From a virus: a DNA stretch of 64,000 nt. Location: IMG/VR virus record IMGVR_UViG_3300042561_002100, positions 115,527 through 179,526 of that record; one strand, written 5' to 3'. Under the pieces are notes generated by a model. That model saw only the letters and a program-made list of their open reading frames with translations. It had not been told where the DNA came from and searched no databases. This document shows, in pieces, positions 2 through 61,744 of this stretch. Position numbers and translations under genes: made by a program. Within the stretch, counting starts at the first letter, position 1, and each line of letters starts with the position of its first letter.

Positions 2-88
2 GTTCGTCGTGGTGTTGTACAAAATCCAAACGCACCTCACTATCTCAAGAAGTATCTTAAAATTCAAGAACAACTGGCGATGTTATGA
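2..88 (+). CDS. 3' end of an LRV-repeat gene (partial, runs off window start)
   Basis: Frame 2 reads VRRGVVQNPNAPHYLKKYLKIQEQLAML*, the family C-cap; its TGA (86-88) overlaps the next ATG (85-87). Confidence 0.9.
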   Translation, partial: VRRGVVQNPNAPHYLKKYLKIQEQLAML

Positions 89-570
89 ACAAATTTGAAC
101 AAGCTGGAGATCCAAACACTCAACCAAAAACCCTAGAACAACTAGCGACTGATGAGGAATATTTGGTTCGTTGTTGTGTAGCAAATAATCCAAACTCTTC
201 ACCCAAAACTCTAGAGCTTCTAGCGACCGATGAGGATTATCGTGTCCGTATTGTTGTAGCAGAAAATCTAAACACTCCACTAGAAATCCTAGAACAACTG
301 GCAACCGATGAGAATTCTGGTGTTCGTTATAATATAGCAAATAATCCAAACACACCACCAAAAGCCCTAGAACAACTAGCGACCGATAGGTATTATGAGG
401 TTCGTTGGAGGGTAGCATGTAATCAAAACATTCCACCAAAAGCTCTAGAACAACTAGCGACCGATGGGAATTGGGATGTTCGTTGTGAAGTAGCACTAAA
501 CCCAAACACACCACATTACATCAAAAAGTATATTAAAATTAAACAATACCTATCATGTCTACATTTTTAA
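85..570 (+). CDS. LRV/HEAT-like repeat protein, 5 variable units
   Basis: 26-aa repeat NPNTPPKxLEQLATDExxxVRxxVAx; N-cap MNKFEQA, C-cap PHYIKKYIKI. Confidence 0.9.
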   Translation: MNKFEQAGDPNTQPKTLEQLATDEEYLVRCCVANNPNSSPKTLELLATDEDYRVRIVVAENLNTPLEILEQLATDENSGVRYNIANNPNTPPKALEQLATDRYYEVRWRVACNQNIPPKALEQLATDGNWDVRCEVALNPNTPHYIKKYIKIKQYLSCLHF

Positions 571-794
571 TTTATTCAAAACCCGGTTGTCCTTATTGTG
601 TTAAAATTAAACAGGTAATGGACCTCAAGGAACTAAAACATGTTCTTTATACTCTAGATCAAGATTTCACTAAAGAAGAGTTTTACAATAAATTCGGCAA
701 TGGATCAACCTTCCCTCAGGTAGTCTATAATGATCAAAATCTCGGTGGTTGTGTTGACACGATCAAATATTTAAAAGAAAATAATATAATCTAA
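555..794 (+). CDS. grx: Glutaredoxin (NrdC-like)
   Basis: CPYC active site, TFPQV and GG motifs, 79 aa. Confidence 0.9.
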   Translation: MSTFLIYSKPGCPYCVKIKQVMDLKELKHVLYTLDQDFTKEEFYNKFGNGSTFPQVVYNDQNLGGCVDTIKYLKENNII

Positions 795-1157
795 ATGGAT
801 GAAATTTATTACGATCTCCAACAGGCAATTGATTTTGCTTTCGTACAAAATAAGTATGTACTAAATTCTTTTTCTTATTTGAAAGTCAAAGATGTAAGAC
901 GAGTTGATGCACAAGAATTGTTAAGATCATCTTTAGTGCAGGAACTATACTCCTATATCAATGATCTTAATCTTTATCTGAAGAATAGTCAAGATCCAGA
1001 TGTTCTTTATGCAGAAGAAGCTTATGGTTTTCTTACCAAAGCCGATGCCAAAAGAATTTCTACTTATTTTGATAACATTATAGAAGGAATAAAAAAGTAC
1101 ATTCAAGAGAGAAAAGGTGCAACAAAAAAACCAAAACCCAGAACCAAATCTAAATAA
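795..1157 (+). CDS. Conserved cyanomyovirus hypothetical protein
   Basis: Abuts grx stop; EEAYGFLTK..AKRI motif typical of this core block. Confidence 0.7.
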   Translation: MDEIYYDLQQAIDFAFVQNKYVLNSFSYLKVKDVRRVDAQELLRSSLVQELYSYINDLNLYLKNSQDPDVLYAEEAYGFLTKADAKRISTYFDNIIEGIKKYIQERKGATKKPKPRTKSK

Positions 1158-1311
1158 AGTTGACAGGGGTTTAGTTTTCATGCTCCAACCCAAGCAAAAG
1201 GAGGGCTCAATCTTTAGCTTAGTATGGTACAAGATGGTCGCTCTTTTCAACAAGGAATACCATCTTCGTTTTGAGTTTCAAGTTAAACCAAAAGGAGGAT
1301 TAAACAAATGA
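1117..1311 (+). CDS. Hypothetical protein
   Basis: Fills the operon gap, ATGA-coupled to next gene; start uncertain. Confidence 0.55.
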   Translation: MQQKNQNPEPNLNKVDRGLVFMLQPKQKEGSIFSLVWYKMVALFNKEYHLRFEFQVKPKGGLNK

Positions 1312-1550
1312 TTACGTTCGCAATAATCACACTTAGTATTCTTGTTCTTGTTGCATTCTTGGGTATCGGCGTTATCACAGGTTATCTTGTTCGCCAATAT
1401 TTTGAAGAGAATAAACCAGTTTATGCTACACATCCCGAATTATGGGATAGAGAAACCGGAAGACTTATTGTAGATTCAGAAATTCTGGCTATTAGAGTTG
1501 AAAACGAAAGCGGTGTTGAAATCGCTCCTGACGAATTAGAAGATGTTTGA
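1308..1550 (+). CDS. Small membrane protein
   Basis: N-terminal hydrophobic helix, HPELWD motif. Confidence 0.7.
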   Translation: MITFAIITLSILVLVAFLGIGVITGYLVRQYFEENKPVYATHPELWDRETGRLIVDSEILAIRVENESGVEIAPDELEDV

Positions 1551-1562
1551 AAATAAACAATT

Positions 1563-2126
1563 ATGACAACAGAAACAACAACAAAACCAAAGACTACCAG
1601 AGCTAAACCGATTGAAAAGCTCTCATCTAATCCTTTCATGTTTGAGATTTTAGATCTGGTTATTAAGCAAAAAACAAAAGCTAAAAAAATTGAAGTTTTA
1701 AATGAATATCGTTATGATGGAATGCTGATGATCTTTCTGTGGAATTATGTTCCAACACTGGAGTCCGCTCTGCCTCCTGGAGATGTTCCCTACTCAACAC
1801 TGAAGGAGTTGGAGCTGGGTAACGACACGCTCTCAGAGACCGTCAGAAAGCAGATTGACGCGGATCAGATGGTGGACGCTCTAGGATCCAACATGAGAAC
1901 CAGCATTCGTAGAGAGCATCAGATTTTTTACAACTTTCTTAAAGGTGGTAATCCAAGTCTGGCTAGTATCCGAAGAGAGACAATGTTTATCAATCTTCTA
2001 GAAGGTCTTCATCCGAGAGAAGCTGAAATTCTTATTCTTACAAAAGATAAGAGACTTACCGACAAGTATCCTATTCCTTTTGAACTTCTTCGTGAAGCTT
2101 ATCCTGATGTGAAGTGGGACCGATGA
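1563..2126 (+). CDS. Conserved T4-like phage hypothetical protein
   Basis: RRETMFINLLEGLHPREAEILI..KDK motif. Confidence 0.75.
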   Translation: MTTETTTKPKTTRAKPIEKLSSNPFMFEILDLVIKQKTKAKKIEVLNEYRYDGMLMIFLWNYVPTLESALPPGDVPYSTLKELELGNDTLSETVRKQIDADQMVDALGSNMRTSIRREHQIFYNFLKGGNPSLASIRRETMFINLLEGLHPREAEILILTKDKRLTDKYPIPFELLREAYPDVKWDR

Positions 2127-2428
2127 TGTGGACTGAAGAAGAGAGAAAAAGTGTTCCTTCTCAATATAATTGTGAACTTCTTTTTCATAATGCCAATGAT
2201 GATCAACTAAAGAATCCAGAGCTTCCGAGTGATGCCTATATTGTAGAGTATAATACAGATAGTGGTTCTTTTATTGATCTTTGTAGATCTAGTAAAATGT
2301 CTAATATCTTTGATTTATATTATGATAAAGTGGGCAATAACATCCGCCGCATTGATTTTGGTTATGGGCGGATGAATCCAAGACTTTGGGGTAACCCAGT
2401 TCCAGAACAGAAGAAGAGAAAAAGATGA
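2114..2428 (+). CDS. Conserved cyanomyovirus hypothetical protein
   Basis: LPSDAYIVEY...GYGRMNPRLWG; operon-coupled. Confidence 0.7.
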   Translation: MGPMMWTEEERKSVPSQYNCELLFHNANDDQLKNPELPSDAYIVEYNTDSGSFIDLCRSSKMSNIFDLYYDKVGNNIRRIDFGYGRMNPRLWGNPVPEQKKRKR

Positions 2429-2613
2429 GTGAAGGATTTAATAAACTAAGAGTTAATATTAACAAAGACGAGTTCAATAAGATTATCCGAAAATATAAAA
2501 ACGCAAAACGTTATATGAAATCTGGAATTTTTGCTGTTAGAACGATGAACGGAACAGAAGAATATATTTCTGGTCTTCTCAAAGAAACCGACAATCCTTC
2601 ACTAATGAATTAA
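2425..2613 (+). CDS. Hypothetical protein
   Basis: ATGA overlap with upstream gene, stop abuts speD ATG. Confidence 0.65.
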   Translation: MSEGFNKLRVNINKDEFNKIIRKYKNAKRYMKSGIFAVRTMNGTEEYISGLLKETDNPSLMN

Positions 2614-2940
2614 ATGGGTAAGCATTATCTACTGAATCTTTATGGTTGTGATCCACTTCTTCTTAATGATATGGATTTTGTTGTTAAGATGTTGTCTGAT
2701 GCAGCTTTATTTTGTAATGCGACTATATTAAATGTTGCATCGCATAAGTTTGAGCCTTGTGGTCTTACAGTAGTTTTAATGCTTGCCGAATCGCATATTA
2801 GTATGCATACATGGCCCGATAGACATACCGCAGCGTGTGATGTTTATACTTGTTCTAAGACCGATCCAAAGATTGGATGTGATTTTATTATTGAAAAACT
2901 TCGTCCAATTAAAAACGATTTGATCTTTATTCAGAGATAA
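2614..2940 (+). CDS. speD: S-adenosylmethionine decarboxylase proenzyme
   Basis: HKFEPCGLT..MLAESHISMHTWP...CDVYTC with the E|SH autocleavage site. Confidence 0.95.
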   Translation: MGKHYLLNLYGCDPLLLNDMDFVVKMLSDAALFCNATILNVASHKFEPCGLTVVLMLAESHISMHTWPDRHTAACDVYTCSKTDPKIGCDFIIEKLRPIKNDLIFIQR

Positions 2941-2944
2941 CTTA

Positions 2945-3517
2945 TTGAGCTATTTTATTATGAACGAACTTGACCAGGCTATAGATCCTAACACACCATC
3001 AACAATATTAGAACAACTAGCGACCGATGAGGATTGTGGTGTTCGTTGTTGTGTAGCACAAAATCCAAACACTTCATCAGAAATTCTAGAACAACTAGCA
3101 ACTAATGATGAATGGTATGTTCGTTATTATGTATCATATAATCCAAACACATCACCGACAACATTAGAAGTTCTAGCGACAGATGAGGAATATTGGGTTC
3201 GTCGTGATGTAGCGTGTCATTCAAACACACCACCAACAACATTAGAACAACTAGCGACCGATGTGTATTCTAATGTTCGTCATGGTGTAGCAGATAATCC
3301 AAATACTCCACCAAAAGTCTTAGAAATTCTAGCGACCGATGAGGAATATTGTGTTCGTTGGAGAGTAGCAGATAATCCAAACACACCACCAAAAATCTTA
3401 GAACAACTAGCGACCGATGATGATTGGGATGTTCGTTGGAGGGTAGCAGGAAATCCAAACACACCACACTATATCAAGAAGTATCTTAAAATTCAAGAAC
3501 ATTTGGCTAGATTATGA
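2945..3517 (+). CDS. LRV/HEAT-like repeat protein, 6 units
   Basis: 26-aa repeat plus family caps; probable start 2960 (MNELDQA); TGA overlaps next ATG. Confidence 0.9.
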   Translation: MSYFIMNELDQAIDPNTPSTILEQLATDEDCGVRCCVAQNPNTSSEILEQLATNDEWYVRYYVSYNPNTSPTTLEVLATDEEYWVRRDVACHSNTPPTTLEQLATDVYSNVRHGVADNPNTPPKVLEILATDEEYCVRWRVADNPNTPPKILEQLATDDDWDVRWRVAGNPNTPHYIKKYLKIQEHLARL

Positions 3518-3774
3518 ACAAAAAGAAACTAATACTTCATCTTAATAGTATTCAAAATCTTATTGATACCATAAGACTTGAATTAGAAGAGGAAGAAAAT
3601 GTTATTGATTCTCAACCAAATAATACCATAAGTATTCCAGATTTTATTAGATCCGCTAATGTTGATTTAGAAGATGATGTTCAATATGCAGAAGAATCTG
3701 ATGACGGACCACCAATACTGTTGAATAGTAAGGCTGAGCGGGATTTTTATGAAAGATTTAGATTAGGAGATTGA
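3514..3774 (+). CDS. Acidic hypothetical protein
   Basis: ORF coupled to the upstream LRV gene. Confidence 0.6.
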   Translation: MNKKKLILHLNSIQNLIDTIRLELEEEENVIDSQPNNTISIPDFIRSANVDLEDDVQYAEESDDGPPILLNSKAERDFYERFRLGD

Positions 3775-3825
3775 TTGAGATATTATATTTGTGTTTTATG
3801 AAACTTGACTGTATAATAAATTATT

Positions 3826-4119
3826 ATGATCAAATCGTATCTTGACCAACAACAGAATAATTGGAGAGAATATTGTAATAATTTTCTTTTAGCCGAAAAT
3901 CCAAACACTTCACCTGAAATCCTAGAACAACTAGCGTCTGATGAGAGTTTTTATGTTCGTCGCTGTGTAGCGAGTCATCCAAACACACCACCAAAAGTCC
4001 TAGAACAACTAGCGACCGATGAGGAATATTATGTTCGTTGGAGTGTAGCACTAAATCCAAACACACCACGCTATCTCAAAAAATATCTTAAAATTCAAGA
4101 ACATCTAAAAACATTATAA
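3826..4119 (+). CDS. LRV/HEAT-like repeat protein, 2 units, atypical N-terminus
   Basis: Repeat and C-cap PRYLKKYLKIQEHL. Confidence 0.85.
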   Translation: MIKSYLDQQQNNWREYCNNFLLAENPNTSPEILEQLASDESFYVRRCVASHPNTPPKVLEQLATDEEYYVRWSVALNPNTPRYLKKYLKIQEHLKTL

Positions 4120-4144
4120 ACACATCAATCAGGAGAACGTATCA

Positions 4145-4897
4145 ATGATCGGTAAACTACTAGAATCTATTAATAAGCTTCTGCCAAAAAAACAAAATAG
4201 CAAAAGTGATCCAGAATTACCAAAAGTAAAACTCGTCTCCATTACTCGGGGTGTTGGAGATCTTATGAATACTAGCGCCCAGGAAGTTATTTCATATATT
4301 GCCAGAGTGAGTAATCCAAATAATCAACTCAATTTTGATACAGCAGAGGGTCTTATTCGTTATTGTATTAAAAACAAACATGTGAGCATTTTTGAACATG
4401 CTTATATGACTCTTGAGATTAATACAACGAGAGCTATTGCAGCTCAGATTTTAAGACATAGAAGTTTCACATTTCAGGAATATAGTTTACGGTATATGGA
4501 CATAACCGCTCTTTCCGATAATCCATTAATTCCTGAACTAAGACGACAAGATAATAAGAATCGGCAAAATTCTATTGATGATTTTTCCGAAGATGAGCAA
4601 TTAAAAATGCAAAAAGAGATTCAGCAGTATTTTGATACTGGTATGAAGCTTTATGAAAAATTACTCTCAAACGGTGTCGCAAAAGAGTGTGCAAGATTTA
4701 TTCTGCCATTATCAACTCCAACAAGAATTTATATGACGGGTAACGTAAGATCCTGGATAACTTATATTGCTCTTAGAGAAAAAAATGGAACTCAGAAGGA
4801 ACATAAGGACATCGCCAAGGCATGTAAAGAAATCTTTGCGGAGCAGTTTCCAACCTGTTATGAGGCTCTCGGAGGAGACGAAGAATGGGCTATCTAG
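4145..4897 (+). CDS. thyX: Flavin-dependent thymidylate synthase
   Basis: QILRHRSFTFQEYSLRY ThyX motif; VAKECARFILP; TQKEH. Confidence 0.95.
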   Translation: MIGKLLESINKLLPKKQNSKSDPELPKVKLVSITRGVGDLMNTSAQEVISYIARVSNPNNQLNFDTAEGLIRYCIKNKHVSIFEHAYMTLEINTTRAIAAQILRHRSFTFQEYSLRYMDITALSDNPLIPELRRQDNKNRQNSIDDFSEDEQLKMQKEIQQYFDTGMKLYEKLLSNGVAKECARFILPLSTPTRIYMTGNVRSWITYIALREKNGTQKEHKDIAKACKEIFAEQFPTCYEALGGDEEWAI

Positions 4898-5817
4898 AAT
4901 ACTTACAACAATACCGTGAAAAATATCATTTAGATGATATCTTCAATCACGATAATAGCGCCGATGAAGAACAAGTAACGGAGTATATTGGGGAATTATG
5001 TGGATGGTCTGGCGAATTCCTTTGTTTGTGGTATGGCGAACATAGGGACAAATATTACAAAAGTGGAAGGTCGTTTCCGGCCAATATCTATAGGTTTATT
5101 GTAAAAAATAGTGTATTAGAAAATACTCTTAAAAAACCGAAGGACATTGATTATCTTACCAGATTCTTAGTAACAACATTAGATCATCCTGATTGTCTTA
5201 TTTTAGATTCAATCGCAAAAGAGAATAATCCATTAATAAACAAAAACATCTCACGCCACAAGAATACATCTAGCGACACTTTATTGTATCTTGCATCTTA
5301 TAGTTTCCTTGGATTTAATATTTTTAATAATAAAAATTCAAATGATGATGTTTTATTGGAAGTAACTAATACCATATTGCGCGATTTAAGCAATAAAATT
5401 TACGAGGATATAATTCCAGAAAATGGGGACTGGGGAATTGATCAAGATATAGAAAGTTACATTAGAGAATATAAGCCCGGATTTCACTTCGTTCGTCATA
5501 GAACCTTAGATAAAATGGAATGGGTCGCCCAGCATTTTAAAATCACCGAAAGTATTTGTAATAAAATTATTTCGGCAGATCAGGAAACACTAAAAACTTT
5601 AGAATGGTATCACATTTTTTATGCTATGGGTCGGAATCCTTTTACACCAGAAACAATTTTAGAAATACTTTCTGAACGGAAACCCTTGACTACATTTAAA
5701 CCCTCAAGCCTAATCGGCGTTCTTGAAAATCCCAATGCACCCGAGCATATATTAGAAAAACATTTAGATCATTACCCCAATATAAAACATTGGAGATATG
5801 TTAATTTCGGAAAATAA
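4885..5817 (+). CDS. Hypothetical protein with diverged LRV-like motifs
   Basis: HKNTSSDTLLYLA, RNPFTPETILEIL, ENPNAPEHILEK. Confidence 0.6.
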   Translation: MGYLEYLQQYREKYHLDDIFNHDNSADEEQVTEYIGELCGWSGEFLCLWYGEHRDKYYKSGRSFPANIYRFIVKNSVLENTLKKPKDIDYLTRFLVTTLDHPDCLILDSIAKENNPLINKNISRHKNTSSDTLLYLASYSFLGFNIFNNKNSNDDVLLEVTNTILRDLSNKIYEDIIPENGDWGIDQDIESYIREYKPGFHFVRHRTLDKMEWVAQHFKITESICNKIISADQETLKTLEWYHIFYAMGRNPFTPETILEILSERKPLTTFKPSSLIGVLENPNAPEHILEKHLDHYPNIKHWRYVNFGK

Positions 5818-5874
5818 TCTTCCTTCTTTCGCATAGATAGTTCATAATAACAAAGGAAATGAAGAATGGACAAT

Positions 5875-5881
5875 CTAAATA
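5875..5881 (+). promoter_or_regulatory. T4-type late promoter (CTAAATA)
   Basis: Matches the cyanomyovirus late -10 consensus, 23 nt upstream of the next ATG. Confidence 0.6.
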
Positions 5882-5903
5882 ACGTCACATATTATTAAAT
5901 CTT

Positions 5904-6146
5904 ATGGCAATTTATCCTATTAAAAATAAAGAAACAGGTGAAACAAAAGTGATTGAAATGAGTGTTCATGAGATCACACAATGGTACAAGAACAATCCTC
6001 AATGGCAACGAGATTGGTCACAAGGATGTGCGACACCAGCCGAAGTTGGAGAATGGCGAGACAAACTCGCTAAGGCACATCCTAGTTGGAATGAAGTTTT
6101 AGGCAAAGTCAGTAAGGCACCAAATTCAAAAGTAAAAAAGATCTAA
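5904..6146 (+). CDS. Conserved cyanomyovirus protein upstream of phoH
   Basis: MAIYPIKNKETGE...W.EVL.KVSK.P; usual phoH neighbour. Confidence 0.75.
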   Translation: MAIYPIKNKETGETKVIEMSVHEITQWYKNNPQWQRDWSQGCATPAEVGEWRDKLAKAHPSWNEVLGKVSKAPNSKVKKI

Positions 6147-6151
6147 TCTCT

Positions 6152-6904
6152 ATGGCAAGAAAAAGAAAGAGTTCACAACAAGTCGGCATTAGTACAGCAT
6201 ATAAGAATAGAAGAAAACCCCAACAAATCACACTGGATCAGATGGTTGAATTGCAGCCATTGACCGATAATCAAGAAAAACTTTTTGACTCTTACGATAA
6301 AGGTAAATGTATTGTCGCTCATGGCGCCGCCGGTACAGGAAAGAGTCTTATTACCATCTATAAGGCTCTTGAAGAAGTATTGGATCCATCAACACCTTAC
6401 GAAAAAGTTATTATTGTTCGCTCTATTGTTCCAACAAGAGATATTGGCTTTCTTAAGGGTTCTATTGAAGATAAGCAATCAGAATACGAAAAGCCATACA
6501 AGTACATGATTAAAAAGCTTTTCAATCTGAATTCCGATGAAGAATATGAGCTTCTTTATGCTAATCTAAAAGCACAAAAGTCATTCTATTTCATGTCAAC
6601 AAGCTTCATTCGCGGAATGACTTTTGATGATTGTATTATTATTGTGGATGAATTCCAAAATCTTTCTGGTCATGAACTTGATTCAATAATCACTCGTATT
6701 GGAGAAAACTCCAAGATTATGTTCTGTGGTGATGTCACACAATCTGATTTGATTAAAACAAATGATAGAAATGGTATTATTGATTTTATGAAGATTTTGA
6801 GAGAGATGCCATCGGTTGATATTATTGAATTTCAACTAGAAGATGTTGTGCGCTCTGGATTTGTTAAGGAATATCTCACTGTTAAATATAGTCTTAATTT
6901 ATGA
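6152..6904 (+). CDS. phoH: PhoH-family ATPase
   Basis: GAAGTGKS Walker A; RGMTFDDCIIIVDEFQN; GDVTQSDL. Confidence 0.95.
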   Translation: MARKRKSSQQVGISTAYKNRRKPQQITLDQMVELQPLTDNQEKLFDSYDKGKCIVAHGAAGTGKSLITIYKALEEVLDPSTPYEKVIIVRSIVPTRDIGFLKGSIEDKQSEYEKPYKYMIKKLFNLNSDEEYELLYANLKAQKSFYFMSTSFIRGMTFDDCIIIVDEFQNLSGHELDSIITRIGENSKIMFCGDVTQSDLIKTNDRNGIIDFMKILREMPSVDIIEFQLEDVVRSGFVKEYLTVKYSLNL

Positions 6905-7000
6905 TAAGTGAAAACCCAAAGTGTATTAAATCTTGAAATCTTATGTATATTATCAGCTACTTCTCAATGTGACTGATAATTATTCCACCTCAAAACCCAC

Positions 7001-7029
7001 TTGACAAAACCGGCTTCCTGTGCTAGGCT
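7001..7029 (+). promoter_or_regulatory. Sigma70-type promoter
   Basis: TTGACA-17 nt-TAGGCT with extended -10 TG. Confidence 0.7.
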
Positions 7030-7052
7030 GGAAGCCGTTTCAAAAAGACCTC

Positions 7053-7346
7053 ATGGACAATCCAGCATACCAAAAGAGATATCATTTCGACGTGTTAGAT
7101 CTCGATTGTGAAATATCTTTGTTACCCGATGAACTAGGAGTAGAAATTAGCATTGAACATGATTATATGCTAGCCGATAATGCCTATATGATAAAAAAAG
7201 ATAAGTGGGGATGGGAAGGTGGTCTCATTGCTGATGAAAAAGATATTAAATATTCTGACTCCATTTTAAAATATCTTAATGAGAATGGAACACCTTTTGA
7301 TGATGTTATTTTGCAAGCTAGAAAAGAGTTAATATTAAATGAATAA
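7053..7346 (+). CDS. Hypothetical protein
   Basis: ORF-track start at 7020 lies inside the promoter; ATG 7053 preferred. Confidence 0.6.
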   Translation: MDNPAYQKRYHFDVLDLDCEISLLPDELGVEISIEHDYMLADNAYMIKKDKWGWEGGLIADEKDIKYSDSILKYLNENGTPFDDVILQARKELILNE

Positions 7347-7505
7347 TTCAATACCTCTCTGAAAGATAATGAAAGTTCCACTAACACCACTGATGAAGAA
7401 ACTTCTTCAAGATAAAGAAGCGAGTGAACAACTCCAACAAGCTCTAATAGATCACAATAAAACAATAACAGTTGACGGTAAAACATATAAATTAGAATCT
7501 ATTTA

Positions 7506-8522
7506 ATGGAAAGAAAAATATTCAACCACAATCCAATAACACTACCAAAATTAAAACAGGTTAACGTTCCGGGACTTCGTTATTACACAACAGAAAGTAG
7601 TAAAAACAAGTTCGTCTCAATTACGTCTATCATTTCTCATAACACAAAACATAAATTCGTCAAATGGCGAAAAGATGTTGGAGAAAAAGAGGCAAATAGA
7701 GTCACTAATCGTTCAACACTAAGAGGAACCAAAACCCACTCGCTTATTGAGGCATATGTTGGAAATGAAGAACAACCTCTTTTAGAAAGCATCTTTAAAC
7801 CAGAAGAAGACGAAAAAATTGAAAGGCTTCTTAATCCTTACGATAGAATCTGCGCTCTGAATAATAAGCTGGTCATAGAGATCTTTAAAAATAGCGAAAA
7901 TCTATTGAGAGTTAAAATCTCAGGAAACAATAAATCAGCTAATCTTTTTCTAGATCTCATCTACGACCAATTCGGTGAGATTCTTTTTGAGCCTGGTACC
8001 AATCCAGATGGCTACAATAAACACATTTTAGTTCAGGCCGAGTATCAAAATTTTATTGATTTTTCTCTTGAATCTATTGATGGTGCTACACTCTATCCCG
8101 AGACAGTAGAATCTTATAAAAATCTGCCTTTTAGGCTCTTTGATAATCTTAGACCGGAACTCAATAAAATTGATAACGTTCTGGGTATTGAGATTCCTCT
8201 TTATAGTGAATACTTTGGAATCGCTGGAACTTCTGACTGTATTGCGGAATATAATGGAATTCTGAGTATCATTGACTATAAGACTTCCGATTATATCAAA
8301 CGTAAAGAATGGATTCTAGATTATTTTGTACAGGCTGTTGCTTATCGCTACATGTTAAAGGAGCGAACGGGATTAGATGCACAGCAACTTGTTATTTTTA
8401 TGGCTGCGGAAAACGGAGAGATCAAGCCTTTTATTGAGACCGATTTCACTCCTTATTCTAAGAAACTTGTTCAATATATCAATAATTACAAAAATGAAAA
8501 AATCAAAGAAGTTGAATCTTGA
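7506..8522 (+). CDS. PD-(D/E)xK exonuclease (ExoA-like) with ~110-aa insertion
   Basis: SITSII..KWRK.VGE.EANR...RGT..H; IAGTSDCIAEY..ILSIIDYKTS. Confidence 0.85.
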   Translation: MERKIFNHNPITLPKLKQVNVPGLRYYTTESSKNKFVSITSIISHNTKHKFVKWRKDVGEKEANRVTNRSTLRGTKTHSLIEAYVGNEEQPLLESIFKPEEDEKIERLLNPYDRICALNNKLVIEIFKNSENLLRVKISGNNKSANLFLDLIYDQFGEILFEPGTNPDGYNKHILVQAEYQNFIDFSLESIDGATLYPETVESYKNLPFRLFDNLRPELNKIDNVLGIEIPLYSEYFGIAGTSDCIAEYNGILSIIDYKTSDYIKRKEWILDYFVQAVAYRYMLKERTGLDAQQLVIFMAAENGEIKPFIETDFTPYSKKLVQYINNYKNEKIKEVES

Positions 8523-8775
8523 TCAGGAACTAGAGAAAGAGTACAATAAGAAGTTCATCTCACAAGAAAAGTTTGCAGAACAGATTGAACAATATTGTCA
8601 TGACAATGGTTATGAGAATTACATTTCTGCAATAGCCGATTATTGTGAGCTTAATAATATTGATATTGATTCTGTTCCCAAGCTAATATCAAAACAATTC
8701 AAACAAAAGATTCAACATCAGGCAACGAAACTGAATTTTCTAAAGATTAAACCTCTACCAGAATTACCAATTTGA
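8494..8775 (+). CDS. gp33: Late promoter transcription co-activator gp33
   Basis: KFAEQIE..NYISAIADYCELNNIDIDSVPKLISKQFK.KI..QA..LNFL; start set at MKKSKK. Confidence 0.85.
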   Translation: MKKSKKLNLDQELEKEYNKKFISQEKFAEQIEQYCHDNGYENYISAIADYCELNNIDIDSVPKLISKQFKQKIQHQATKLNFLKIKPLPELPI

Positions 8776-9368
8776 AGCCGACACCATATGAATGTTACAC
8801 AATATATCTTGCCTTAAAACAACATTTCTCCAATGAGAATTACGACTTCTTTCAATACAATGGAAAAGTCAGAACATCAATAAAAACTTATAACAAAAGA
8901 AACGACCGATATTTTTTTGAGAAACTGAGCAGAAAATACGACAAACAAGAAATCATTGAGTATTTTGCTGCATCATTTATTATGGCTCCAGATCCGGGAA
9001 ACTTATGGATCGGAGATTTAAGAACAAAAGGTGAAGAAAATTATAATACCTGGAAAGCTAACACATCATCGCTCGCTTATAGATTCAATGAAGAGATAAA
9101 AAGTCTTACAGAATCAAAACATCTATATGAGTGTGTGAAGTTTATTGACAATAAACATCCGCAGATTATCAAAGCTTTTCTGAGAAACGAAGTGTCATTA
9201 GAGACTTTGTTTATACTTGAAGATATTCTACATTTTATGAAAAGTTCCGATTATGATCCGATTCTAAAATTGATTGAATTTAAGATCAAAAAATATCGTC
9301 CGTTCTTTGAATATAACAAACCATATTTCATAGAACAGATGAAGACCATATGCTTTCAGACGAGTTAG
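8772..9368 (+). CDS. gp59: Helicase loader gp59
   Basis: YLALKQHF...YDFFQYNGK...KRNDRYFFEKLSRK; follows gp33. Confidence 0.9.
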   Translation: MKPTPYECYTIYLALKQHFSNENYDFFQYNGKVRTSIKTYNKRNDRYFFEKLSRKYDKQEIIEYFAASFIMAPDPGNLWIGDLRTKGEENYNTWKANTSSLAYRFNEEIKSLTESKHLYECVKFIDNKHPQIIKAFLRNEVSLETLFILEDILHFMKSSDYDPILKLIEFKIKKYRPFFEYNKPYFIEQMKTICFQTS

Positions 9369-10677: not shown

Positions 10678-10694
10678 TAACATCACAAAAAATT

Positions 10695-11309: not shown

Positions 11310-11398
11310 AATTTTGTGATCTGGATACACTAATAAATAAATATGGGTTGGTAAACCCACCAAAGAAGCTTCCGGTTTAACGCTATCTAAAAACAAAA

Positions 11399-49854: not shown

Positions 49855-49968
49855 GTATTATGGAACATGAACTTTTTGCTATGTGTGAGAAACTCACTAA
49901 TAAATTACATGAATATTGTAATTGTCATCCGACACACGATACTGAATTTTGTTTTCAGTCAATTCTGA

Positions 49969-50013: not shown

Positions 50014-50036
50014 ACTAAGGTAGTACACGAACTTCA

Positions 50037-50839: not shown

Positions 50840-50853
50840 TTCTTATTTAAACA

Positions 50854-51015
50854 ATGGAAAATCTTATGTCTGAAGAAACTGTGACCATTCCTAAAAAAGA
50901 ATACGAACAACTTATTGAAGATCAACGAGTTTTAAACGCACTTGAGTAGGCAGGTGTTAATAATTGGGAGTGGTATGGTGATGCACTAGAAAGTCTATCC
51001 GAAAGCCAATCCTGA
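50854..51015 (+). pseudogene. Small phage protein interrupted by in-frame TAG
   Basis: MENLMSEETVTIPKKEYEQLIEDQRVLNALE*AGVNNWEWYGDALESL; TAG at 50947-50949. Confidence 0.65.
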
Positions 51016-51400: not shown

Positions 51401-52876
51401 TTGGAGAATACCATGACTTTTATGAACGCTCTTTCTACCGAAATGAATAATACGACCACCGCAAATGGTGCAAAGGCATACGAATCAACTCAAAACGAAT
51501 GTCTTGATCTCTACGGTTCCATCGGTGCTTGTCGTAATAATCTCACTCTAGCCGAGCGTCTATTCTTTGCGGCATACGAACAACATCCAGAAACGGCAGT
51601 ACGAATTCTGTTCTATTCTCGTGATATTCGCGGAGCAAGTCAAGGTGAACGCTCAGTTTTCCGGGCTCTTATGCCTAAACTCGCTCATAAGAATCCAAGA
51701 ATCGCAGCACGTCTGGTGTCTTTGATTCCTTATTATGGTCGCTGGGATGATCTTCTGTGTCTAGAGAATACTCCAGTTTGGAATGAAGTCTTGAAGACCA
51801 TTGAAACTCAACTAAAGACAGACATGAGTAGTGATAAGACTTCGCTGCTAGCCAAATGGCTTCCTTCTATCAATGCATCGTCTAAAGATAGTAAGCGTCT
51901 AGGTAGACTGATCGCAGCTCATATGGGTTGGTCTGAACGTCAATATCGCAAGAATCTTTCTGCACTTCGGGCTAAGATCAAGATTGTTGAAACTCCGATG
52001 TGTGTAAAAGAATGGAGTGTTATTGATTATGAGCATCTTCCTTCTCGTGCAGCCTTCATGTATCGCAAGGCATTTAAGAAACATGATGAGACTCGTTATT
52101 CCAATTATCTTTCAAGAGTAGAGAAAGGTGAAGCCAAGATCAATGCGGGAACATTATATCCTTATGATATTGTTAATAAGTATCTTTATCAAGGTGCTCA
52201 TAATGATAAGACTCTTGAGCTTCAATGGAATGCCTTGCCTAATTACATGGAAGATCTAGAATTTAATGGTCTTGTTGTTGCCGATGTTTCTGATTCTATG
52301 AAGAGATATGGTGGTATGCCGTTGGCAGTTTCCATCTCACTCGCAATGTATATTTCTGAGCGTAATCCATCTGAGATCTGGAAGAATAAGTTTCTGACTT
52401 TCTCTGAAGCACCAAAACTTCAAACTATTCTAGGCAACAACATTGAAGAAAAAATTAGGCATCTGAAACTAGCCGATTGGGGTTGGAATACCGATCTGAT
52501 TGCCGTTTTTGATACCATTCTGAAAGCAGCAACTGAAAATAAAGTCGCAGCTAAAGACATGCCACAAAAACTGATTATTGTTTCCGATATGCAATTTGAT
52601 GTGGCATGTAGATCCAATAAGCGTACTAACTTTGAGCAGATTCAAAAGATGTATCGGAAGTCTGGTTATGAGATGCCTCAGCTTATTTTCTGGAATGTAA
52701 ACGCAAGTGCTAATGTTCCGATTCAAGCTGATGACACTGGAACCGCATTAGTTTCTGGTTGTAGTCCTGCTATTCTGAAGTCTGTTCTGAGTGGTAAAAT
52801 CGTATCTCCTGTGGATGTTATGATGGATAGCCTTTATGTAGAGCGTTATGCTCCGATTGGTGAAGTTTTTGCCTGA
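51401..52876 (+). CDS. DUF2828-family protein with C-terminal vWA domain (putatively Ro60/TROVE-like)
   Basis: T.NGA.AY.ST...LDL; RDIRG..GER; YGRWDDL; AKWLPS; LYPYDIV; MIDAS-like DVSDSM; IIVSDMQFD; FWNV. Confidence 0.85.
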   Translation: MENTMTFMNALSTEMNNTTTANGAKAYESTQNECLDLYGSIGACRNNLTLAERLFFAAYEQHPETAVRILFYSRDIRGASQGERSVFRALMPKLAHKNPRIAARLVSLIPYYGRWDDLLCLENTPVWNEVLKTIETQLKTDMSSDKTSLLAKWLPSINASSKDSKRLGRLIAAHMGWSERQYRKNLSALRAKIKIVETPMCVKEWSVIDYEHLPSRAAFMYRKAFKKHDETRYSNYLSRVEKGEAKINAGTLYPYDIVNKYLYQGAHNDKTLELQWNALPNYMEDLEFNGLVVADVSDSMKRYGGMPLAVSISLAMYISERNPSEIWKNKFLTFSEAPKLQTILGNNIEEKIRHLKLADWGWNTDLIAVFDTILKAATENKVAAKDMPQKLIIVSDMQFDVACRSNKRTNFEQIQKMYRKSGYEMPQLIFWNVNASANVPIQADDTGTALVSGCSPAILKSVLSGKIVSPVDVMMDSLYVERYAPIGEVFA

Positions 52877-53616: not shown

Positions 53617-54896
53617 ATGAACTACTGCGAAGCTAAAGACTACGCGGTTTCCTGCTTCACAGAAGTTGCCTCTAGTTCCTTATGAACCTTTGGTCTTACA
53701 CTATCTCCACAGGCAGACACGGTAGTTCCTACCGCCAAAATGTTTTTCGCCGCATTAATGTCTCTATCATGATGACTACCACAATCAGGACAAGTCCATT
53801 CTCGGACATTTAACGGCATTTTAGTTTGAATAGAACCACAAGAGGAACAAGTTTTACTAGAAGGATACCATTGGTTAATAATAATTAACTCACGCCCATA
53901 CCAGTTGCATTTGTACTTCAAATAACTGCGAAACTGATACCAACCTTGTTCGCTAATTGCTCTGGATAACTTGCGGTTCTTAACCATATTTTTGATTTTT
54001 AAGTCCTCAAGAACGATAACTTGGTTTTCGTTAACGAGTTGTCTTGAGACTTGATGATGAAAGTTTAGTCTAATGAACTTAATTTTTTCATACTGTCTTG
54101 CGACTTTTAATCTTGCTTTGTTTCTGTTTTTAGAACCTTTTTGTTTTTTATAAAGTTTCTTTTGAAGTTTCTTTAATTTTTGATACTCTTTCTTTAAATC
54201 TGGAGACTTGATTTTATCTCCACTGGAGGTTGTAGCAAAAGTAGTAATACCCAAGTCAATACCAATTTGGTTGTTTACTTTAGGTAATGGTTCAATAGAA
54301 ACCTCAAGATTAAAAGAAACAAACCACTTTCCAGAAGGTTCAAGTATAATATAAATATACTTGATTTCTTGATTTTGTGGTAGTTGTCTATGAAACCTGA
54401 TGTTTAATGGTTGTTTGTTTTTAGCAATAAAGAACTTTCCGTCTTTAATGGAAAAAGCGCAAGTGTCAAGACCAATAGAATTGGTTCCAGACTTTTTCTT
54501 GAAGTTTGGAAAACCACAATTTCCTTTAAAGAACTTTTTATAAGTTCCGTCAAGTTCGTAAATAGAATACCTTAAAGGTATAATAGATACTTCACTCAAC
54601 CAAGAGTATTCAGGTTCTTTTTTAAGTTGCGTAAGTATTTTTGCTGTGTCGTAGTAAGACAAAGACTTATTTTCTTGTTTCCAAGATTTTTGTCTCAAAT
54701 CAAGAAAATAATTCCAGACCAATCTAGAACACCCAAGTGTCTTACGAAGCAAAATTTCTTGTTCTTTATTTGGATATAGTCTAAATCTAAATCCTTGACG
54801 CACTTGGGTTAAATGCATTATACTTACACAACTATTTATTAAAGTTTAATTCTTGACCCCGATGCTAAAGACATCGGGGATTGCGGATTAATTTAG
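53617..54896 (-). mobile_element. IS200/IS605-family element, tnpB only (IS1341-like)
   Basis: Subterminal hairpins sharing loop CTAAAGA at 53627-53646 and 54857-54879; no tnpA; ends uncertain by 1-2 nt. Confidence 0.85.
53640..54818 (-). CDS. tnpB: TnpB RNA-guided nuclease
   Basis: HTH FRLYPNKEQ..GCSR.VWN; RuvC IGIDLG / LEDL / DRDINAAKNI; zinc finger CSSC..CPDC. Confidence 0.95.
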   Translation of the reverse strand: MHLTQVRQGFRFRLYPNKEQEILLRKTLGCSRLVWNYFLDLRQKSWKQENKSLSYYDTAKILTQLKKEPEYSWLSEVSIIPLRYSIYELDGTYKKFFKGNCGFPNFKKKSGTNSIGLDTCAFSIKDGKFFIAKNKQPLNIRFHRQLPQNQEIKYIYIILEPSGKWFVSFNLEVSIEPLPKVNNQIGIDLGITTFATTSSGDKIKSPDLKKEYQKLKKLQKKLYKKQKGSKNRNKARLKVARQYEKIKFIRLNFHHQVSRQLVNENQVIVLEDLKIKNMVKNRKLSRAISEQGWYQFRSYLKYKCNWYGRELIIINQWYPSSKTCSSCGSIQTKMPLNVREWTCPDCGSHHDRDINAAKNILAVGTTVSACGDSVRPKVHKELEATSVKQETA

Positions 54897-56606: not shown

Positions 56607-57059
56607 ATGCAAATCTCACTAGAAGAACTAAAAGAAATCTTTGATAAAGTTCTCACCGAAGTAAAAGTAAAAAAATGTTGTTCCGAATCAGATAACATTT
56701 TACTATCCAGAGATCCCAAAACTCCACCAAAAACACTCCAAGCCTTAGCGACAGATGTGAATCCTGATGTTCGTTATTTTGTAGCACAAAATCCCAATAC
56801 TCCAACAAAAGTTCTAGAACAACTAGCGACCGATGAGAATTGGCGTGTTCGTTGTGGAGTAGCACATAATCCAAATACTTCAACAAAAACACTAGAACAA
56901 CTAGCGACCGATGAGGATTCTTATGTTCGTTGGGGTGTAGCAAGAAATCCAAACTATAATCCAAAAGAGACTCTTGAAGTAACTAAACAACAAAAAGAAG
57001 CTCTCAAGAAATTGATTGATGCTAGTCAAGACGAATCACTTAAAACTATCAATCTTTAA
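56607..57059 (+). CDS. LRV/HEAT-like repeat protein, 3 units, non-family caps
   Basis: Three repeat units between unrelated N- and C-terminal segments. Confidence 0.85.
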   Translation: MQISLEELKEIFDKVLTEVKVKKCCSESDNILLSRDPKTPPKTLQALATDVNPDVRYFVAQNPNTPTKVLEQLATDENWRVRCGVAHNPNTSTKTLEQLATDEDSYVRWGVARNPNYNPKETLEVTKQQKEALKKLIDASQDESLKTINL

Positions 57060-59036: not shown

Positions 59037-59365
59037 TTATGAATCAAGAAGTTAAAACAAAATGGATCCAGGCTCTTAGATCTGGAAAGTACAAACAAGG
59101 TCAAGCATATCTTCGTGAAGGTGAATATTATTGTTGTCTTGGTGTTTTATGTGATCTGAATGAATCAAGACAATGGACTCCTATTGATCGTCCATCTAAA
59201 AAGATTTATAGCCCATTTCCCAATGAAGACCATCTAATGTTACCTAAAAATATCTCTCAGTGGGCAAATTTAATAGAAATTGAACAGGACGAGCTAATAA
59301 AACTTAATGATACAGATAATTACACTTTTGAACAAATTGCCGATTACATTGAAGAGAATCTTTGA
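59033..59365 (+). CDS. Conserved phage protein, paralogue 2 (tandem duplicate)
   Basis: Identical N- and C-termini to paralogue 1. Confidence 0.75.
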   Translation: MIMNQEVKTKWIQALRSGKYKQGQAYLREGEYYCCLGVLCDLNESRQWTPIDRPSKKIYSPFPNEDHLMLPKNISQWANLIEIEQDELIKLNDTDNYTFEQIADYIEENL

Positions 59366-59811
59366 TTATGCAAGAACATTTCCAAATTGTTAAACATTAT
59401 CAACGTACAACTTTTGATAATATCAAAAAATATCTAAAAGAAGGTAATTATGTTGCCGCCATTAATTGTTGGCAACATTCATATTATCCTATTTCGGTAG
59501 AAAATTTTCTTGCTTGTAATGAAACTGAAACTAATCGTGAACTTTTGGATAGTATTAAAGATATTCTTTCTTCAGTTGAACATTCTGTAAATAAAATTGA
59601 AGAGCATCTTAGAGAAGAAAGTTCACTATGGCAAGAAATGATGGAAGCGGGAGCACATCATAGTCATCCTCACCATCAAATGGCCGACAAAATTTTATGT
59701 GTTAGAGATTGGATTGACAATCATTTCTCTGCTAGAAAAATTGATTCTGGTGCGGTATTTGCTGCACTTACTAATCAAGCAAATAAATGTCGCAACTTTA
59801 AGCGTGATTAA
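59362..59811 (+). CDS. Hypothetical protein
   Basis: Coupled ORF. Confidence 0.6.
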   Translation: MIMQEHFQIVKHYQRTTFDNIKKYLKEGNYVAAINCWQHSYYPISVENFLACNETETNRELLDSIKDILSSVEHSVNKIEEHLREESSLWQEMMEAGAHHSHPHHQMADKILCVRDWIDNHFSARKIDSGAVFAALTNQANKCRNFKRD

Positions 59812-59814
59812 TAA

Positions 59815-60477
59815 ATGTTAAAAATCTTAGAATCCCAAGTTAAAATCGCCACAGAAGAAGCGGTCAAAGAACTTACTAAACCTTCATGGGTCGAACTTCC
59901 AGAATGGGCTGAGTGTCTTGGATTCGCTTTTTCTAGAGATGACGATGAATTTTATAATTCCATTTACGGAAAAGAATTAGTGGATCAAATGAAAGGTTAT
60001 TGGTGTTATTTTTCTTTTAATGATCCAGTAGGTGTTGCAAATCTTGAATATCGTCCAGAAGATAATACCATCAAAAAATATATTGTATGGATATGGTCAA
60101 TAGAAGGGGTAGGAATCAATTTTTATGTTGAAACTACTCTTTCTAAGACAAAACTTCAAAAATATTATTATCTAAAAAGTCCTACTATAAAAAGAGTTGA
60201 TGTTTACACAGAAGATCAAGAGATTCCCATTGATGGTAAACTACTAGGATCTGATCCAACAGTAAAAGTTGAATCTGCTGATTATGATATTCTGATTAGT
60301 GATATCCAAAAACATTATATTAAACTCAATAAAGAATTTGAATCATTATCTAAGAAACTTACAAATCCCAATTTTAAAGAAAAAGCACCAAAATCAGTTG
60401 TCCTAAAATGTCAAAGTGATTACGAAAAAGTTGAATCTAATTTAGCACTTCTTAAAACTAAATTGAATCTATTATGA
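59815..60477 (+). CDS. Protein ending in a valyl-tRNA synthetase C-terminal coiled-coil arm
   Basis: LSKKLTNPNFKEKAPKSVV...LL..KL..L matches the ValRS C-terminal arm. Confidence 0.7.
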   Translation: MLKILESQVKIATEEAVKELTKPSWVELPEWAECLGFAFSRDDDEFYNSIYGKELVDQMKGYWCYFSFNDPVGVANLEYRPEDNTIKKYIVWIWSIEGVGINFYVETTLSKTKLQKYYYLKSPTIKRVDVYTEDQEIPIDGKLLGSDPTVKVESADYDILISDIQKHYIKLNKEFESLSKKLTNPNFKEKAPKSVVLKCQSDYEKVESNLALLKTKLNLL

Positions 60478-60692
60478 CCAAGGAAGAACTTCTCCAATTT
60501 GTTAATCAGTATCAACGTTATTTTAATGTTGATGATCTCCAAGATTTAGAACCATTGGAAATCTTAAAAAAATTTACTCATAGATGTTATGAGTATGGAC
60601 ATGAGAAAGGAGATAGAAGGGGTTATAGAGAAGGTTTTGACGCAGGATATAAAGAAATAGAGTCTAGAGTATTAGATCTTTTTAATCATTAA
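60474..60692 (+). CDS. Hypothetical protein
   Basis: Coupled ORF; YEYGHEKG..GY.EGF.AG. Confidence 0.55.
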   Translation: MTKEELLQFVNQYQRYFNVDDLQDLEPLEILKKFTHRCYEYGHEKGDRRGYREGFDAGYKEIESRVLDLFNH

Positions 60693-60709
60693 ATCATCTT
60701 TCTAACATC

Positions 60710-61105
60710 ATGACCCGACGAATCATTGAAGAGCACATCACACTTTATGGAATCAATAACGATATTGATTCTCTAATTAATGAGCTACTAAAATATAAAG
60801 ATCAAGGATTTGAAAAATATACAACTGATCGTGAGGGTTTTATTGAACTTCATACTCTTCGTCCTGAGACCGAAGAAGAATCTCAAGAGCGACTTGAGCT
60901 TGAACGTCAAAGAGATGAACGACAAAAAAGAGAGTTAGAACAAAGACAAAAAGCTAAATTGCTCAAACAACAACGAAAAGAATATCACAGACTAAAAAAT
61001 ATTTTAAGTGATTCAACATTTAACGATAAGACTCCGACTCATATAGTAGAACAATACCATAATCGTTATAATACTCTTAAAGATATTCTCATTGCCACTT
61101 TATGA
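60710..61105 (+). CDS. Hypothetical coiled-coil protein
   Basis: RPETEEE..ERL; distant similarity to 61948-62253. Confidence 0.6.
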   Translation: MTRRIIEEHITLYGINNDIDSLINELLKYKDQGFEKYTTDREGFIELHTLRPETEEESQERLELERQRDERQKRELEQRQKAKLLKQQRKEYHRLKNILSDSTFNDKTPTHIVEQYHNRYNTLKDILIATL

Positions 61106-61150
61106 ACTGTCACACCGAAGAGCATTAAAACAGTTCAGATATGCAAGAAT
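61105..61150 (+). promoter_or_regulatory. Early promoter with upstream box
   Basis: AACTGTCAC; TG-C-AAGAAT at +40. Confidence 0.5.
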
Positions 61151-61175
61151 GATCAAGTTGGATGAAACATCGCTT

Positions 61176-61529
61176 ATGATCTGGCTTATTAAAGAACTTA
61201 GAGATGAGTTATTTTATTATCTCGCTAAAACAAAATATACACCACCAAAAGTTCTAGAACAACTAGCAACCGAAAAGGATTCTAGTGTTCGTGAATGTGT
61301 AGCACTAAATCCAAACACACCAACAAAAGCCCTAGAACTTCTAGCTACTGATAGGTATTGTTATGTTCGTTGGAATGTAGCAAGAAATCCAAACACACCA
61401 ACAAAAGCCCTAGAACTTCTAGCTACTGATAGGTATTATTGTGTTCGTTGTGATGTAGCAAGAAATCCAAACACTCCCCACTACATCAAAAAGTATCTTA
61501 AAATTCAAGAACATCTGGCGACGTTATGA
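61176..61529 (+). CDS. LRV/HEAT-like repeat protein, 3 units
   Basis: Repeat plus C-cap; start moved downstream of the promoter (track gives 61092). Confidence 0.85.
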   Translation: MIWLIKELRDELFYYLAKTKYTPPKVLEQLATEKDSSVRECVALNPNTPTKALELLATDRYCYVRWNVARNPNTPTKALELLATDRYYCVRCDVARNPNTPHYIKKYLKIQEHLATL

Positions 61530-61744
61530 ACAAATTTGAACAAGCTATAGATCCATCCACACCATCAAAAGCACTAGAACTACTAACGACCGATGAGGAT
61601 GATTATGTTCGTAGGTTTGTAGCAAGAAATCCAAACACACCACCAAAAATATTAAAACAACTAGCGACCGATGAGGATTATGATGTTCATGAAGAAGCTT
61701 CACAAAAACATTTTCTTATTATGATGCAAAATATTATCCGATAG
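61526..61744 (+). CDS. Truncated LRV repeat protein (N-cap plus 1-2 units, no C-cap)
   Basis: MNKFEQA N-cap; repeat breaks off at YDVH. Confidence 0.7.
   Translation: MNKFEQAIDPSTPSKALELLTTDEDDYVRRFVARNPNTPPKILKQLATDEDYDVHEEASQKHFLIMMQNIIR

Follow-up and report, generated by a model that had tools for sequence, protein, structure and literature searches.

A dispersed family of LRV-repeat genes with a homogenized scaffold and diversified helix positions in an uncultured cyanophage

The final 64 kb of IMG/VR virus record IMGVR_UViG_3300042561_002100 (179,526 bp; hereafter G000), the whole stretch of DNA analyzed here and called the window, carry 14 dispersed genes built of LRV repeats (PF01816) in units of 78 bp. 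Phages have limited genome space and for this reason seldom carry multigene families; in this uncultured freshwater cyanophage, LRV genes take 6–9% of the DNA. This locus raises the question of what such a family does and what keeps its copies so alike in one part and so different in another. We analyzed the window together with the rest of the record, a close relative (IMGVR_UViG_3300044591_002420, 125 kb; G001), and a more distant relative (G003), whose helicase is 71% identical. With moderate confidence, based on sequence comparison and a structure model, we propose a lineage-specific family of capped LRV proteins with a recombination-homogenized scaffold and a diversified face on the second helix of each unit (helix B), and we infer that these proteins may act as cytoplasmic binding modules. 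Positions are those of the window unless another sequence is named.

Repeat pattern, scaffold, and variable positions

A sequence-only reading of the window had described 14 genes with about 55 copies of the 78-bp unit. All 14 open reading frames (ORFs) were present, and a hidden Markov model of the unit, built from the sequence, counted 55 units in the 13 complete genes (5, 6, 2, 7, 4, 7, 4, 3, 6, 3, 3, 3, and 2). Whole genes hold two to seven units, not the one to seven given by that reading. A 22-nt motif of the scaffold matched the window 36 times with at most three mismatches, where 0 matches were expected, and every match lay on the plus strand. The window genes span 5,885 bp, which corresponds to 9.2% of the window. 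With the same model, 101 units in 24 genes were counted in the whole G000 record; all 24 genes are open, and they include ten further genes upstream of the window, four of which lie on the minus strand. In the six window proteins scanned, Pfam matches to LRV (PF01816) had E values of 1e-16 to 1e-56 and scores of 59.8–185.4 bits against a cut-off of 21.6, with two to seven matched stretches per protein. Weaker matches were obtained with LRV_2, HEAT, and HEAT_2, the last at 31–37 bits against a cut-off of 27.7.

The unit is 26 residues long in 99 of the 101 units and 27 residues long in the other two. Per-position entropy reached 2.6–3.5 bits at unit positions 17, 18, 19, 22, 23, and 26, exactly where hypervariability had been claimed; positions 8, 11, and 16 had intermediate values of 1.7–2.2 bits, and no other position exceeded 1.6 bits. 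The variable sites had also been described as rich in Y, W, C, R, G, and S. This description held for W (12-fold enriched), C (8-fold), Y (3.7-fold), and, to a lesser extent, R (1.8-fold), but G and S were at background; F, K, T, V, A, and I were depleted.

The scaffold was nearly invariant even at synonymous sites, as the sequence-only reading had stated, with codons nearly fixed against the usage of the genome. In G000, R21 is encoded by CGT in 93 of 94 units (18% genome-wide), A13 by GCG in 69 of 93 units (12% genome-wide), and L9 and L12 by CTA (15% genome-wide). V20 is encoded by GTT in 90 of 92 units, yet V24 is encoded by GTA in 86 of 92. Codon bias was rejected as the source of the synonymous invariance because the fixed codons run against genome usage and differ by position. 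The more distant relative G003 carries at least 44 LRV units with the same variable positions as in G000 but a different scaffold (LERLAND; cap QYILTYLKIK.FLNYY), and its synonymous codons are fixed differently: TTA at L9 (25 of 25), CTG at L12, GCT at A13, and GTT at V24. A function of the invariant scaffold at the nucleotide level, as DNA or RNA, was rejected because G003 fixes other synonymous codons.

Exact tracts of 77–108 nt are common to G000 paralogs up to about 107 kb apart, and one tract of 108 nt links genes that lie about 65 kb apart on opposite strands. These shared tracts, together with perfect tandem duplications of units, indicate that exchange among units is recent. The codons that are fixed within a genome but differ between G000 and G003 indicate, in turn, homogenization by recombination or gene conversion. 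The sequence comparisons thus showed that the scaffold is kept uniform within a genome by concerted evolution.

The variable positions follow a different regime. Nei–Gojobori estimates (NG86) of nonsynonymous (dN) and synonymous (dS) divergence and their ratio (omega), pooled over all pairs of units, were dN 0.12, dS 0.28, and omega 0.42 for the scaffold and dN 1.0, dS 0.44, and omega 2.26 for the hypervariable codons. A bootstrap over genes gave an omega of 0.43 (confidence interval, 0.36–0.49) for the scaffold and 2.25 (1.89–2.78) for the hypervariable codons, a value above 1 and not neutral. At the level of codon comparison, diversifying selection was thereby shown at five or six positions, which share one side of helix B. 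The variable codons are mostly NNT and TGG and cluster within one step of TGT, TAT, and TGG; F is depleted at these sites despite its one-step distance from this neighborhood.

Source phage and turnover of the repertoire between strains

The structural genes of the window are myovirus-like and include tape-measure-like proteins, a baseplate hub, and a 1478-amino-acid (aa) tail fiber. A tail protein matched only records of Synechococcus, Prochlorococcus, and related marine phages, with a handful labeled marine virus or Pelagibacter phage; its best match (54%) was in two freshwater Synechococcus phages, B3 and B23. A DUF2828 (Ro60/TROVE-like) gene (51401–52876) with a weak VWA signal was 65% identical to the same two phages. 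Judging by these tail-protein and DUF2828 matches, the element is an uncultured cyanophage, and its clade consists of uncultured cyanomyoviruses of about 240 kb.

G001 is collinear with positions 126929–179526 of the G000 record and, at its other end, with positions 1–11898. About 60 kb of G001 (52875–113317; L008–L011), which fall between the end of the window and the start of the record, are missing from G000, and a public contig of 244,489 bp carries protein sequence identical to that encoded in the window. From this 60-kb stretch and this contig, the true genome size is put at about 240 kb, and by this sequence evidence the G000 record is incomplete. G001 carries 27 LRV ORFs with 91 units in its 125 kb, 13 of them in the stretch missing from G000, and the full genome probably carries 35–40 LRV genes.

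Between G000 and G001, 49 non-LRV orthologs had a median amino acid identity of 95%, whereas syntenic LRV genes were 51–87% identical. At the syntenic LRV loci, private leaders and caps are kept, and unit number and content differ: going from G000 to G001, a seven-unit gene corresponds to three ORFs, three units correspond to five, and two genes correspond to one, and a 2.6-kb insertion in G001 holds two extra LRV genes. In the ortholog pair of the gene at 56607, the caps and the variable residues of the first unit are identical, and nearly all differences in units 2 and 3 fall on the variable codons or on positions 6–8 and 11. One of the G001 units matches 74 of 78 nt of a unit from a different G000 gene. 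When each unit was reduced to a signature of six residues, 92 distinct signatures were found in 99 G000 units, and only 4 of 89 G001 units had a signature that also occurs in G000. In the same metagenome series, other strains have flanks 90–96% identical to those of G000 and a different LRV content; one of them carries a 3.3-kb insertion filled with LRV genes, and another has a replaced LRV cluster. LRV genes flank the helicase in each of three related phage records. These comparisons of sequences showed that the genomes gain, lose, and exchange LRV sequence at every scale, from the whole unit through the block of units to the whole gene, and that co-occurring strains about 95% identical outside the family carry almost non-overlapping repertoires.

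The only other genes that diverged to a comparable degree between G000 and G001 are two tail-fiber-like genes (35682–37106 and 37158–38882; 71 and 63% amino acid identity). Their strong divergence suggests that host-range determinants may evolve alongside the LRV repertoire.

Independent contigs from other samples (L058, L059, and L003) are 100% identical to window positions 44427–50888 and 59067–61623, which cover four whole LRV genes and the start of a fifth. Two LRV proteins, the only two indexed among ten window proteins looked up exactly, were unchanged on six contigs. An assembly artefact was therefore rejected for the window. No match to a reverse transcriptase (PF00078) was obtained in the 179.5-kb record (83% complete). 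The identical independent assemblies and the lack of a reverse transcriptase match argue that the family is neither an artefact nor the work of a programmed mutator; as far as these assemblies tell, the repertoire is stable within a strain and different between strains. Of the recombining repertoire that had been claimed earlier, recombination and strain turnover can be kept, but active diversification cannot, with loci identical across samples and no reverse transcriptase found. A separate contig, L030 (IMGVR_UViG_3300044616_001284), follows G000 from about 52998 to 49818 (92%) and then from 157200 to 160003 (99.5%), with the two alignments overlapping inside LRV repeats; this junction came about either by chimeric assembly or by a real rearrangement mediated by LRV genes.

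Predicted fold and comparison with known repeat systems

The structure of the 185-aa protein encoded at 46412–46969 was modeled with AlphaFold2. The single-sequence model had a predicted local distance difference test score (pLDDT) of 69, and the model made with a 66-sequence alignment was a regular solenoid with a pLDDT of 98.1 and a predicted template modeling score (pTM) of 0.89. In this model, every unit contributes a helix A of 7 residues (unit positions 6–12) and a helix B of 9 residues (18–26), and the ends are closed by one helix each, short in the N-cap and long in the C-cap. DSSP assigned H to both helices, a label that does not separate alpha from 3-10. The sole PDB sequence match of the modeled protein was the LRV protein of Azotobacter vinelandii (1LRV; E value, 1.3e-5), which was also the top Foldseek match (E value, 2e-6; TM, 0.66; root-mean-square deviation, 3.1). 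The alphaRep structures 3LTM and 4JW2 gave Foldseek TM values of 0.66–0.68 (3LTM, 0.68). The LRV/HEAT solenoid named in the sequence-only reading is thus backed by the Pfam matches, the model, and the matches to 1LRV and alphaRep, which support the view that the proteins are small capped LRV/HEAT-like alpha-solenoids with two predicted helices per 26-residue unit.

On a helical wheel of 100 degrees per residue, positions 18, 19, 22, 23, and 26 fall inside an arc of 140 degrees, with the conserved V20, R21, V24, and A25 on the opposite side, and helix B has a variability moment of 0.56. The alphaRep library randomizes positions 18, 19, 22, 23, 26, and 30, from which the concave binding face is formed in solved complexes (PMC3754942). 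In the phage motif D-x4-VR-xx-VA-x, the variable sites are spaced in the same way, at i, i+1, i+4, i+5, and i+8 on helix B. The likeness to the alphaRep design that had been claimed is supported in that the variable sites are positions randomized on helix B of alphaRep. We infer from the model and from the alphaRep analogy that the five variable positions share one side of helix B.

The repeat motif P..L..LA.D....VR..VA is common to the phage proteins, the A. vinelandii protein, and the long LRV proteins of cyanobacteria. In contrast to 1LRV, the phage proteins are small (72–233 aa), have their own N- and C-caps, occur as dozens of genes per genome, and are built of 26-residue units, 1LRV aligning with shorter units. 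The N-terminal 4Fe-4S domain of the A. vinelandii protein was not found among the Pfam matches of the phage proteins, whose N-termini are short caps or private leaders. The likeness to alphaRep, which was derived from natural PBS-type HEAT-like repeats, extends to capped solenoids of two helices per unit with a variable number of units, and to variable positions 18, 19, 22, 23, and 26 that flank a conserved VR..(A/V)A on the second helix. The alphaRep library design avoids Cys in the described N-cap codons (PMC3754942). The phage family differs from alphaRep in its unit of 26 rather than 31 residues and in being natural, evolved by recombination and selection, and rich in Cys and Trp. Near-identical repeat DNA, few hypervariable residues, and recombinational reshuffling are likewise features of transcription activator-like effector (TALE) repeats and of the cassettes of lamprey variable lymphocyte receptors (VLRs), but the phage family has no discrete residue code, and evidence of somatic assembly or DNA binding was not seen in it.

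Poxviruses and giant viruses carry lineage-specific families of ankyrin-repeat genes. A roughly 35-copy expansion of zinc-ribbon genes was described in Bacillus phage G (PMC7824862). As in those viral families, many dispersed paralogs of a small binding fold are present here that vary between strains, and such paralogs are thought to interact with the host. The LRV family differs from them in its fold, in its occurrence in a phage, in a scaffold homogenized at synonymous sites, and in variation confined to one helix face. In a reference phage collection of 50,697 records, which may omit the genome of the window itself or very near records, the sole detectable match was Moorella phage MTATph1 at 29% identity; Synechococcus phages B3 and B23, the nearest named relatives, are in the collection and gave no LRV match. 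A search of IMG/VR with the unit pattern yielded about 30 further contigs, several of them with many units. No published description was found in a literature search on LRV families in phages. By these searches, the family would be a virus-encoded multigene family of repeat proteins with a variable surface, undescribed in its LRV phage form.

Candidate functions, gene context, and meaning for the phage lineage

The evolutionary and structural evidence partly supports a role of the LRV proteins as binders. The variable, aromatic-rich surface of helix B would bind variable proteins of the host or of rival phages, defence or takeover proteins being one possible target class, and a population-level arms race, not programmed mutagenesis, would maintain the diversity. 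A bolder version, which we offer only tentatively and regard as rather doubtful in its full form, is that the clade keeps a recombination-shuffled repertoire of about 35–40 intracellular binders per genome, an offensive natural counterpart of an alphaRep library that would be strain-matched to host defence or takeover targets.

Several points weigh against the binder proposal. The omega of 2.25 is approximate, as the pooled paralogous units recombine and are partly saturated. The Y/W/C/R/S spectrum is partly a product of the mutational neighborhood of the variable codons, and composition by itself is no proof of selection for binding. The claim of a single face is based on the secondary structure of the model, helical geometry, and the analogy with alphaRep, not on measured solvent exposure. 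No meaningful match to a PADLOC defence model was obtained, and the anti-defence idea is left with no support of its own. Among possible partners, a MoxR-type ATPase (AAA_5) was absent from G000, G001, and G003, and the search for a VWA partner in the same three records gave only the weak signal inside the DUF2828 gene, which is below the cut-off.

As a special case of binding, the phage proteins could be decoys or mimics of giant LRV proteins of the host, which we consider unlikely. Cyanobacteria, mostly filamentous ones, abound in proteins of 600–1500 aa that consist almost entirely of LRV repeats; Nostoc, Calothrix, Microcoleus, and Planktothrix are among the genera that have them. These long proteins are 33–45% identical to the phage proteins, the source phage is a cyanophage, and the LRV fold was probably acquired from cyanobacteria. 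However, the cyanobacterial proteins themselves have no known function, and mimicry would favor conservation of the surface, yet its turnover is near-complete. The host, moreover, is not named by the phage DNA: the closest genomic relatives of an IS605-type TnpB gene (53640–54818, minus strand) are only 40–47% identical (a Chroococcales metagenome-assembled genome, which is the best at 47%, Planktothrix, and others), and TnpB therefore points to no host.

It is also conceivable that recombination lets repeats and genes propagate themselves while the phage gains little or nothing from them; the variable sites would then simply be the least constrained. Concerted evolution, changes in copy number, and perfect tandem duplications would agree with this, the conserved C-cap/ATGA/N-cap junction could serve as a recombination substrate, and one copy (61526–61744) is truncated, with a counterpart in G001 that is also a stub. 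But all 101 units are in frame with caps, omega is 0.43 in the scaffold and above neutrality at the variable sites (2.25), and residue use at these sites is skewed (W 12-fold; K, T, V, A, and I depleted), not relaxed. The loci are, furthermore, kept at syntenic positions in relatives with a helicase only 71% identical, and propagation without benefit appears distinctly improbable to us.

Even less credit is given to a service for the phage's own machinery, in which the LRV proteins would be adaptors or chaperones of, for example, tail-fiber or replication proteins. The gene at 29154 adjoins the tail-fiber gene, those at 39857, 41523, and 42179 flank the helicase on both sides in an arrangement conserved in three phages, and the tail-fiber-like genes are the only other fast-diverging loci. 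Most LRV genes, however, lie among unrelated small genes and genes of nucleotide metabolism, and the helicase is 97% identical between G000 and G001 while the adjoining LRV surfaces are replaced, unlike co-evolving partners.

A reading of nucleic acid unit by unit through a residue code, as in TALE, PUF, or pentatricopeptide repeat (PPR) proteins, would be suggested by near-identical repeats in which a few residues vary, at i, i+1, and i+4 of one helix, by the enrichment of aromatics and Arg, and by the AlkC-like label that JGI gives to some homologs. The triplets at positions 22, 23, and 26, however, took 79 distinct forms in 99 units against a shuffled expectation of 89, which leaves no small recurrent code, and most LRV proteins are neutral to acidic (pI 4.5–6.3 for most; net charge down to −15). 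With no discrete code and such a charge, a TALE- or PUF-like reader is therefore very improbable.

Last, a rewriting of the variable codons during infection by mutagenesis like that of diversity-generating retroelements or by VLR-like somatic assembly of cassettes is largely refuted and retains almost no probability: the mostly NNT variable codons between invariant DNA on both sides and a cytidine/dCMP-deaminase-family gene between LRV genes (47427–47888) would fit it, but no reverse transcriptase was found in the record (PF00078), the TGG frequent at variable sites cannot be produced by adenine-directed mutagenesis of NNT, independent assemblies from other samples reproduce the LRV loci at 100% identity, and large phages ordinarily carry dCMP deaminase for nucleotide metabolism, the gene standing here among ThyX, glutaredoxin, and similar genes. 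Deaminases act in some systems that diversify repeat receptors. The deaminase at 47427–47888 most likely belongs to ordinary nucleotide metabolism, and no evidence ties it to the LRV genes.

The neighbors of the LRV genes include glutaredoxin, SAM decarboxylase, ThyX, helicase, phosphoesterase, and a dCMP-deaminase family protein, and most of the genes stand among unrelated small ones. Many overlap the stop codon of the preceding gene by ATGA. The sequence-only reading had placed several of them directly behind early promoters, but sigma-70-like sites occurred at chance level (37 against 34.8) and at 5 of 13 genes against a background of 21%; the label "early" is therefore unsupported. Caps said to be shared by most genes were found at the C-terminus (12 of 14 genes), but the N-cap MNKxEQA was present in only five or six of the 13 complete genes, the others having private leaders. 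The ORFs listed by that reading all exist, with two starts to be amended: the one given as 61176 begins at 61149 in the public gene call, and ATG at 2960 is likelier than TTG at 2945.

All LRV genes of the window lie on the plus strand. The window begins with the 3' end of one gene (2–84), comprising part of the last unit and the C-cap; the whole gene, at genome positions 115228–115611, has four units. The following gene (85–570; 161 aa), whose start overlaps the preceding stop (ATGA), has the N-cap MNKFEQA, five units, and a C-cap. The gene at 2960–3517 encodes 185 aa from the ATG (N-cap MNELDQA, six units, C-cap), and that at 3826–4119 encodes 97 aa with a private leader, two units, and a C-cap, the exact protein being found on six public contigs. 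Directly upstream of the gene for the 1478-aa tail fiber lies the gene at 29154–29855 (233 aa; private leader, seven units, C-cap), in which two of the seven units form a perfect tandem pair of 27-aa variants and whose locus in G001 holds three LRV ORFs.

Around the helicase, the gene at 39857–40258 (133 aa; N-cap MNKLEQA, four units, C-cap) is the sole LRV gene preceded by a terminator-like hairpin and, after the hairpin, a promoter-like site (39763–39824). The gene at 41523–42182 (219 aa; private leader MMVESRN, seven units, C-cap) comes directly after the helicase gene, and that at 42179–42583 (134 aa; N-cap MNKLEQA, four units, C-cap) forms the best-conserved LRV ortholog pair with G001 (87% amino acid identity), in which the last unit alone has been swapped. 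Farther downstream lie the genes at 46068–46415 (115 aa; private leader, three units, C-cap) and 46412–46969 (185 aa; N-cap MNKREQA, six units, C-cap), the latter encoding the modeled protein, followed by the gene at 48148–48483 (111 aa; GTG start, private leader, three units, C-cap), which has five units in G001.

A second subtype is represented by the gene at 56607–57059 (150 aa), with the leader MQISLEEL..., three units, and the tail ..TKQQKEALKKLIDAS.. instead of the C-cap. The tail form ..T..Q..ALK.LI..S.D..L... takes the place of the C-cap in this gene, in G001 39706–40323, and in the proteins P0002 and P0029. In P0002, three modules of leader, units, and tail are concatenated in a single protein, and one source annotates a homolog of this subtype as CopG/RHH-like. 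The last two genes are at 61149–61529 (126 aa; public call P0007, leader MIKLDETSLM..., three units, C-cap) and 61526–61744 (72 aa; N-cap MNKFEQA, two units, no C-cap). This truncated gene is probably decaying, to judge from its sequence; its G001 counterpart is a stub of 50 aa. Long antisense ORFs cross most LRV genes, for example, at 83–514, 46431–46919, and 39876–40208 on the minus strand; they look like by-products of repeat composition that diverge in step with the sense genes, and not like genes.

Apart from the tail fibers, hardly any locus turns over as fast as the LRV surfaces, and the scaffold, under concerted evolution, contrasts unusually cleanly with the surface, which is under diversifying selection. 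Several strains co-occur at one site, so time-series metagenomes from there allow this contrast to be tracked. If the proteins are binders, the phage would offer a natural library, ready for use, whose scaffold is very stable and well predicted. If the proposal of a strain-matched repertoire is true, LRV content would help decide which host strains can be exploited after phage entry. Should the proteins bind host factors, they would constitute a new class of phage determinants of host interaction or counter-defence in ecologically important cyanobacteria.

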